Origin: Eledone cirrhosa
Lineage: Eukaryota
Direction of reading: 5' to 3'
Assembly (NCBI GenBank): GCA_964016885.1
Contig: OZ024754.1
Span: 1,612,001 to 1,676,000, forward strand
DNA: 64,000 bases
Shown here piece by piece: positions 54,627-54,813 of this stretch. Below the pieces are notes generated by a model. It saw nothing but the letters and a program-made list of their open reading frames with translations. It searched no databases and was not told the origin of the DNA. Within the stretch, counting starts at the first letter, position 1, and each line of letters opens with the position of its first letter. A program made the position numbers and the translations under genes.

Positions 54627-54813
54627 ACGAAGGAGTTGTGGTAAGGAACCGGATGGACCGTAACGTACTAGAGTACTCAATACTTAGGGCAGTAGAGTGG
54701 GTAATGGGGAAAAAGTATGACCCCGACGGCAGAGCTGAAGCCGTTTCGACGGCTATTTCAGAAATAGCCGTCGAAACGGCTTGAGCTCTGCCGTCGGGGT
54801 CATACTTTTTCCC
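54626..54813 (-). mobile_element. Family 1 element with a 53-bp-arm palindrome (54707-54813), flanked by (TA)n
   Basis: Axis at 54760; one mismatch (54737); each arm carries stem II half-GAAA-CGGC..GCCG-TC-ggggtc; the tail matches 16660-16748. Confidence 0.8.

Follow-up and report, generated by a model that had tools for sequence, protein, structure and literature searches.

The window analysed here, a 64,000-nucleotide stretch of the Eledone cirrhosa genome, carries three short insertions, referred to below as stubs, in which the sequence switches orientation a few bases upstream of the motif TAGCCGTC-GAAA-CGGC..GCCG-TC. Positions within the underlying element are numbered so that negative values count upstream of TAGCCG and positive values count downstream of the predicted GUC cut. 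The features are as follows.

54627..54813, no strand: whole head-to-head stub in a (TA)n tract, an insertion of 187 bp
54627..54706, minus strand: 80-nt tail, spanning +18 to +97 downstream of the predicted ribozyme cut and carried by just one of the arms (parent order in L035:3107-3186)
54707..54759, minus strand: tail-bearing arm, the 3′ half of a hammerhead-like motif, extending 4 nt upstream of TAGCCG
54756..54764, no strand: head-to-head junction, with arm extents of 4 and 6 and a 1-nt overlap
54759..54813, plus strand: short arm, ending at +17
16554..16748, tail arm on the plus strand: second stub in (TA)n, the layout of the 54.7-kb copy reversed, with an 80-nt tail at 16669-16748
26554..26641, no strand: third stub, non-palindromic

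The 54.7-kb copy consists of two arms of about 53 nt placed head to head in a palindrome centred on A54760. Its short arm presents, in order, the 3′ strand of stem II (54765-54772), GAAA, stem III, GTC and the 3′ strand of stem I, with the predicted GTC cut triplet ending at 54795. The +17 end of this arm would be the proximal start site of the reverse transcriptase (RT), and the end of the tail, where raw reads run off into (TA)n, would be the distal one. Because one arm carries the extra 80-nt tail, the insertions are 54627-54813 and 16554-16748 and not the palindrome spans alone. In the 16.6-kb stub, the plus-strand tail arm begins at -10 (A16611) with a G just before it (G16610), which may instead be the final base of the opposite arm. 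At three subfamily-diagnostic sites the arms of this stub differ, and they belong to different subfamilies, pointing to two templates or to later recombination. The 26.5-kb stub joins an inverted tail of 34 nt (26554-26587) through a 3-nt overlap to a short arm that starts from -7 (26585).

An earlier sequence-only reading of this stretch had described the orientation switch at the same motif in all three copies, together with the absence of the 5′ half of the hammerhead from each, and both observations hold. It had also called all three copies palindromes, which is correct for 54707-54813 and 16554-16668, but the two parts of the 26.5-kb copy do not overlap and share no complementary sequence. 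The axis, which had been set at the apex of stem II, actually lies on the distal 3′ strand of that stem. What had been taken for the 5′ strands of stem II ('gacggcta') and of stem I is only the mirror image of the right arm, and the 'loop gagta' of the 16.6-kb copy is a G plus the four parent bases -10 to -7.

A repeat search of the window was dominated by microsatellites. At 33110-33188 lies a diverged fragment of a sister family (72% over 79 nt), with its tail and stem III on the minus strand, and at 36836-36933 an unrelated imperfect inverted repeat with 29-nt arms and a 40-nt spacer. A separate minimal hammerhead-like motif at 58629-58665 on the plus strand combines a canonical CTGATGA core, a short stem II and GAAAC-GTT; this motif returned no Rfam match, and a (TA)n tract lies about 85 nt past it. 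It is probably the end of another Penelope-like family.

The arm sequence is abundant in the 3.0-Gb genome (G000). One of its 24-mers has 52,348 exact matches and the reversed control has 0, and 12,980 loci genome-wide are palindromes whose centre does not exceed 30 nt, so the repeat does not arise by chance. The parent copy at L035 contains a single intact open reading frame of 719 amino acids (L035:3280-5436), which starts 91 nt after the TAT of the tail and encodes an RT followed by a C-terminal GIY-YIG-type endonuclease. By inspection, the protein contains the motifs RWR, DKT, YRDD, CxCX5C (CNCPDRSIC), YIGLT, CxxC (CNLC) and CxH (CKH), in which RWR is a conservative change from the RWK of the Hydra clade. 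Pfam and PDB sequence searches of the protein gave no match, and the parent is assigned to the Hydra clade of Penelope-like elements (PLEs) by these motifs, compared by eye with published Hydra proteins; on this basis, the parent appears to be a Hydra-clade PLE. The affiliation with Penelope-like elements suggested in the sequence-only reading holds. A DIRS, Crypton or DNA-transposon parent, which the lopsided inverted repeat had suggested, was rejected on the strength of the reading frame.

The parent unit is about 3.5 kb long, tandem units are spaced 3.54 kb apart, and at 323 places the tail reads on into the unit. The insertions sit in (TA)n. On the outside they terminate at two constant positions, located 17 and 97 nt beyond the predicted cut and each at a TAT. 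The same +17/+97 ends are found in long copies, where inverted repeats of 514, 744 and 1,866 bp surround fragments coding for RT and GIY-YIG-type domains, each copy with its own breakpoint. At L208-L211 (G000:C1:91476613-91487262), at least four complete units follow one another head to tail at a spacing of 3.54 kb, every one with an intact ribozyme motif; this array is a candidate source of read-through RNA. At another place (L201-L202, G000:C1:27009513-27010052), the arm, the tail and the leader of the reading frame form 257-bp tandem repeats that each restart just upstream of the -10 site, which looks like repeated template jumping near the RNA 5′ end. At L041, L043 and L044, multiple stubs adjoin, tail to tail, in one (TA)n tract; here the insertions renew their own target.

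The motif at the end of the unit was proposed from the window alone to be the 3′ half of a hammerhead-like fold, and a real parent with a variant core does exist. The parent expected by that reading, CTGANGA followed by GACGGCTA, has 0 matches in G000; the true parent reads YTGANAAG-CT-CGGCTA, about 40 nt and then TAGCCGTC-GAAA, with 1,946 matches in G000, a lower bound given a subfamily-specific search pattern. In order, the motif comprises stem I, the core YUGANAA, a G-C pair, stem II with about 40 additional bases, GAAA, stem III with a palindromic loop, and GUC. Position 8 is A in all of the 48 distinct intact copies compared, and position 7 varies (G in 36, T in 10, A in 2); the 3/8 combination is U3-A8 in 30 copies, C3/A8 in 17 and A/A in 1. 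The canonical hammerhead core published for Hydra-clade pLTRs is therefore replaced, in the expected place, by a variant motif, in which U3-A8 corresponds to a PLE hammerhead variant described in PMC4209133. A fold constrained to three helices around the core with a UH cut site lies 0-7.6 kcal/mol from the minimum free energy in 6 copies, and stem I, which pairs in the main subfamilies, closes at +17. The intact parent motif (L053:1440-1660) gave no Rfam hammerhead match at E values up to 10, and the 150 of 446 Rfam matches listed for the whole window were all of the simple-repeat, miRNA-like kind. We regard the motif as a putative type I hammerhead-like ribozyme with predicted cleavage.

To place the breakpoints, we tallied the loci of the first 100 of the 52,348 24-mer matches (C1, first 15.5 Mb), taken unselected. 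They yielded 101 exact-anchor arms, one more than the matches through imperfect de-duplication, and only arms long enough for the anchor are counted. Of these, 83 end 0-16 nt upstream of TAGCCG, none end at 17-55, and the other 18 continue past the entire motif; the modes are 18 arms at 9, 16 at 10 and 11 at 4. The breakpoints are thus strongly non-random, as the earlier reading had supposed, and its shared switch point stands as a narrow zone of 0-16 nt with modes at 9-10, though not as a single base. Within stem II, this stop zone occupies the distal part of the 3′ strand and is several bases away from the apex; with some 40 extra bases in the parent stem II, breakpoints fall on its 3′ strand and not at the apex. 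Arms of at least 14 nt account for 1,318 strand matches, about 5% of palindromes, so the limit near -10 is not absolute. The number of arms reaching -13 (16,259) was not used as a survival figure, since parent bases are mimicked where an arm of 3-4 nt meets one of 10 nt. More than half of the arms (58/101) belong to palindromes in which both arms copy the same stretch, and 13/101 are short arms joined to a cut-back tail arm that is too short to be a palindromic partner, several of them without overlap. Solo short arms also exist (L007, L028, L045 and L085).

We consider it probable that each stub was assembled at its landing site from two cDNAs, primed separately, which likely each reached the capped 5′ end of the element RNA by run-off before being joined head to head. 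The short arms with a cut-back tail, the solo short arms and the discordant arms of the 16.6-kb copy are counted for independent priming. Against it, concordant arms need either one RNA used twice or two RNAs of one source locus.

The best-surviving alternative, which we nevertheless hold to be improbable, keeps the run-off and dispenses with the second priming. A cDNA primed at +97 would end at -10, turn on itself with little pairing and be copied to +17. Self-priming has been proposed for PLE palindromes in PMC3846280, the arms are usually concordant, and centres with 4-6 unpaired nucleotides recur (10+4, 10+5 and 10+G+5). In a fold-back, however, the first strand has to be the tail arm, which must therefore always be the longer one at the centre. 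We parsed 75 palindromes (L001-L138 and the window, partly chosen as palindromes, with the loci of the G and A searches left out), 73 of which combine one tail arm with one short arm. Over these 73 junctions, about four of them mis-parsed, the longer arm was the tail arm 28 times and the short arm 26 times, with 19 ties (binomial p 0.89), and 33/73 have at most two unpaired bases. When a longer tail arm, a loop of at least 3 nt and microhomology of at least 2 were considered together, 0/73 junctions combined all three. A looser parse gave 29 longer, 27 shorter and 18 equal of 74, with 1/76 compatible with fold-back. The 273 loci with a G on both arms, the non-overlapping arms of the 26.5-kb copy and the solo arms ending at +17 each need a second priming, and the 26.5-kb copy, with its non-overlapping parts, and the 16.6-kb copy, with its two subfamilies, do not fit a fold-back. 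Over 47 nt in 76 pairs, the arms differ by a mean of 2.1 within an insertion versus 5.5 between insertions, and 17/76 pairs are identical; this likeness does not separate fold-back from twin priming. Run-off followed by fold-back is contradicted as the sole route and survives only as a minor route for junctions with a longer tail arm, where a homology-free jump of the cDNA onto its own end could have taken place.

That both cDNAs of a stub would have run off a capped end, as the twin-priming reading holds, is suggested by the bases at the junction. The parent base at -11 is T or C in 55/55 intact copies. Among 29,695 arms reaching -10 genome-wide, the base at -11 is G in 5,781 and A in 959. 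Among the first 30 loci of each kind, the partner arm could be the origin of this base at 12 G loci and at 9 A loci; at the remaining 18 G loci it does not explain the G. Where neither arm could have supplied the other, both being complete to -10, G stands on both at 273 loci and A on both at 8. In junctions with inserted bases, G stands next to a -10 end in 8/13 cases versus 10/41 at other ends. An untemplated 5′ G is the accepted sign of cap reverse transcription according to PMC3287187, and likewise in PMC11702581. On the other side, the -9 mode (18 arms) is as large as the -10 mode (16 arms), and G follows only 5/16 of the -10 ends.

A(-10) lies within TCAGTC or TTAGTC, both initiator-like, with a 6/6 Inr match in one subfamily only. 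PMC4581360 gives the Inr as TCAKTY with A as +1, a consensus from Drosophila. The DPE window matches at 5/6 positions, which lends weak support, and PMC2377424 places the Penelope promoter inside its pLTR. From the junction statistics, we infer that transcription starts at A(-10), inside stem II. A splice or trans-splice acceptor at -9/-8 (TTTAG) was considered and rejected, as the 30 G loci share no upstream sequence. At L171 and L194, poly(A) runs stand at the head-to-head junction beside a -10 end, suggesting that a polyadenylated RNA end was captured during joining.

A variant of twin priming in which the RTs stall at the extended stem II structure or at a processed RNA end, instead of reaching a capped start, seems to us slightly less credible again than the fold-back after run-off. 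It draws on the position of the stop zone within the predicted stem II helix, and on the capped start site being predicted from the junctions. Before that point, however, the RT has already traversed the stronger stems III and II. If it stalled, it should do so at the inner hairpin's 3′ base (about -5) and not mid-strand at -10; and stalling gives no reason for the preference of G over A, 34 to 1 on both arms.

A very doubtful alternative is a MITE-like, non-autonomous palindromic element amplified from a few master copies. Copy number is high and some centres recur, as this would predict, but centres are highly varied within a subfamily and the same centres recur across subfamilies. The long inverted-repeat copies of 514, 744 and 1,866 bp share the +17/+97 ends while having their own breakpoints, and the repeat is terminal on one side only. 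The one-sided terminal repeat, the varied centres and the RT-encoding parent agree with the sequence-only reading that the element is not a MITE.

The mechanism which that reading favoured was self-priming, with the nascent cDNA folding back on the stem II hairpin. The breakpoints do cluster inside stem II, yet the product across the insert of about 40 nt would keep the apex and the 5′ strand, and the native apex with its 5′ strand occurs in 0 of the first 100 of the 1,318 long-centre strand matches; many of the same 100 are joined at the self-complementary AAATTT. As 0/73 junctions combine the features of a fold-back, self-priming on stem II is highly unlikely and is refuted as the main route.

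Long perfect palindromes are unstable. We also weighed whether the stubs are long palindromic insertions later collapsed by central deletion, or read or assembly artefacts. Three RAD-seq runs from one study were aligned to the non-inverted parent and to the 54.7-kb copy. On the parent, raw reads have loose ends running into (TA)n at both outer sites and form 12 opposite-strand joints; in 10 of these, one of the two sides falls between -14 and -4, and in 6 it falls at -10/-9. On the 54.7-kb copy, several joints of the 26.5-kb type were seen among the 15 of 22 joints listed. Few reads cross the symmetric centre (48, 36 and 23 at 54758). The check in raw reads that had been suggested thus bears out the asymmetric inversion joints, and the symmetric centres are poorly covered, so that these reads by themselves do not prove the palindromes as such. 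A step in RAD depth at L035:3056 was not counted as evidence: it falls on an AATT site, where the library was probably cut. Instability and the sparse reads notwithstanding, collapse or artefact deserves hardly any credence: a collapse would neither stop at a fixed element position nor add a G, the same end point is shared by non-palindromic and solo arms, only 17/76 arm pairs are identical over the 47 nt compared, and the asymmetric joints recur in the raw reads of all three runs. Arm divergence and the one-sided tail likewise argue against an artefact.

In the twin-priming reading that we prefer, the endonuclease would cut (TA)n open on both strands. The 3′ end of either target strand would pair with a UAU and prime internally, one at +17 and the other at +97. 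Most RNAs would begin at A(-10) of the initiator-like TYAGTC within stem II, so the cDNAs would be only about 58 and 138 nt long. The RT would add a C opposite the cap. The cDNA 3′ ends would then be joined bluntly, through 1-4 nt of microhomology or with short inserts, one arm usually being trimmed by a few bases. Arms that pass the limit (18/101) may come from read-through RNAs of tandem units, which would give rise to the long inverted copies. Because the start would lie inside stem II, unit transcripts are predicted to lack the 5′ half of the upstream ribozyme. The downstream ribozyme would cut 17 nt ahead of the nearest priming site that follows it; cleavage would thereby remove the downstream priming sites, from which we predict that cut RNAs yield only stubs, making stubs the default product.

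Several properties of this family are shared with the published Hydra clade (PMC8557442): a single reading frame with RT and GIY-YIG-type domains, the RWx and DKT motifs, the CxCX5C linker, CxxC and CxH, as well as the (TA)n target, partial tandems, an inverted truncated copy and a one-sided tail. The unit is about 3.5 kb here as against generally less than 3 kb, the tail is 80 nt as against 30-40, the hammerhead is non-canonical as against canonical, and stubs here outnumber intact ends several-fold (PMC8557442). The PLE hammerheads of PMC4209133 have in common with ours U3-A8 in place of C3-G8, a G10.1-C11.1 pair and a palindromic helix III; relative to those, the present motif has a full helix III, a bulged long stem I and a stem II insert of about 40 nt, and C3/A8 is unpaired in 17/48 copies. 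Pen2a_Av, as presented in PMC3846280, likewise has a head-to-head inverted pLTR with a tail, a palindrome at the junction and an Inr-like motif in the pLTR, but there it is read as self-priming on an antisense template, whereas we propose two primings on capped sense RNA. For Poseidon PAc in vitro, PMC11167929 reports that both target strands are cut and extended, that two internal RT start sites bound the tail just downstream of the ribozyme, and that a dimer is predicted. Poseidon PAc belongs to another clade, and in the same study it primes without target homology, whereas both ends here lie at a TAT. The inverted pLTR, the junction palindrome and the tail had already been published (PMC8557442 and PMC3846280), and the formation of inverted PLE ends has been named an open problem (PMC8557442). 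Within the open-licence literature, we found no PLE papers titled on twin priming or cap run-off.

Twin priming is a model for L1. There, the inverted segments are adjacent and barely overlap, and the first cDNA primes on poly(A). In our insertions, both cDNAs would start at internal sites and cover one and the same stretch, up to a common end. The pattern that characterises L1, two adjacent, non-overlapping segments of one RNA, is thus not what we find, with 58/101 arms in same-stretch palindromes. The features in common, as described in PMC11702581, are that both target ends prime, that the inverted cDNAs are joined bluntly or through microhomology, and that a cap G may enter the junction. 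The mechanism works like twin priming, and its geometry differs from that of L1.

The feature is real and its architecture was already known; the snap-back mechanism first proposed for it is not supported. It follows from the sequence that a stub transcript, if made, would form a double-stranded RNA hairpin. The approximately 13,000 stubs of one family constitute a record of the insertion reaction, which favours two primings on capped sense RNA and marks a candidate start site to the base. More tentatively, and as a possibility we find less likely than the twin priming itself, PLEs may insert by two-ended priming on capped sense RNA, with the start here placed inside the hammerhead so that the ribozyme acts as a switch: cut unit RNAs would give only self-silencing hairpin stubs, and uncut read-through RNA would be the only source of full copies. 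If true, this scheme would account at once for the inverted pLTR, for the tail and for what the PLE ribozyme is there to do.
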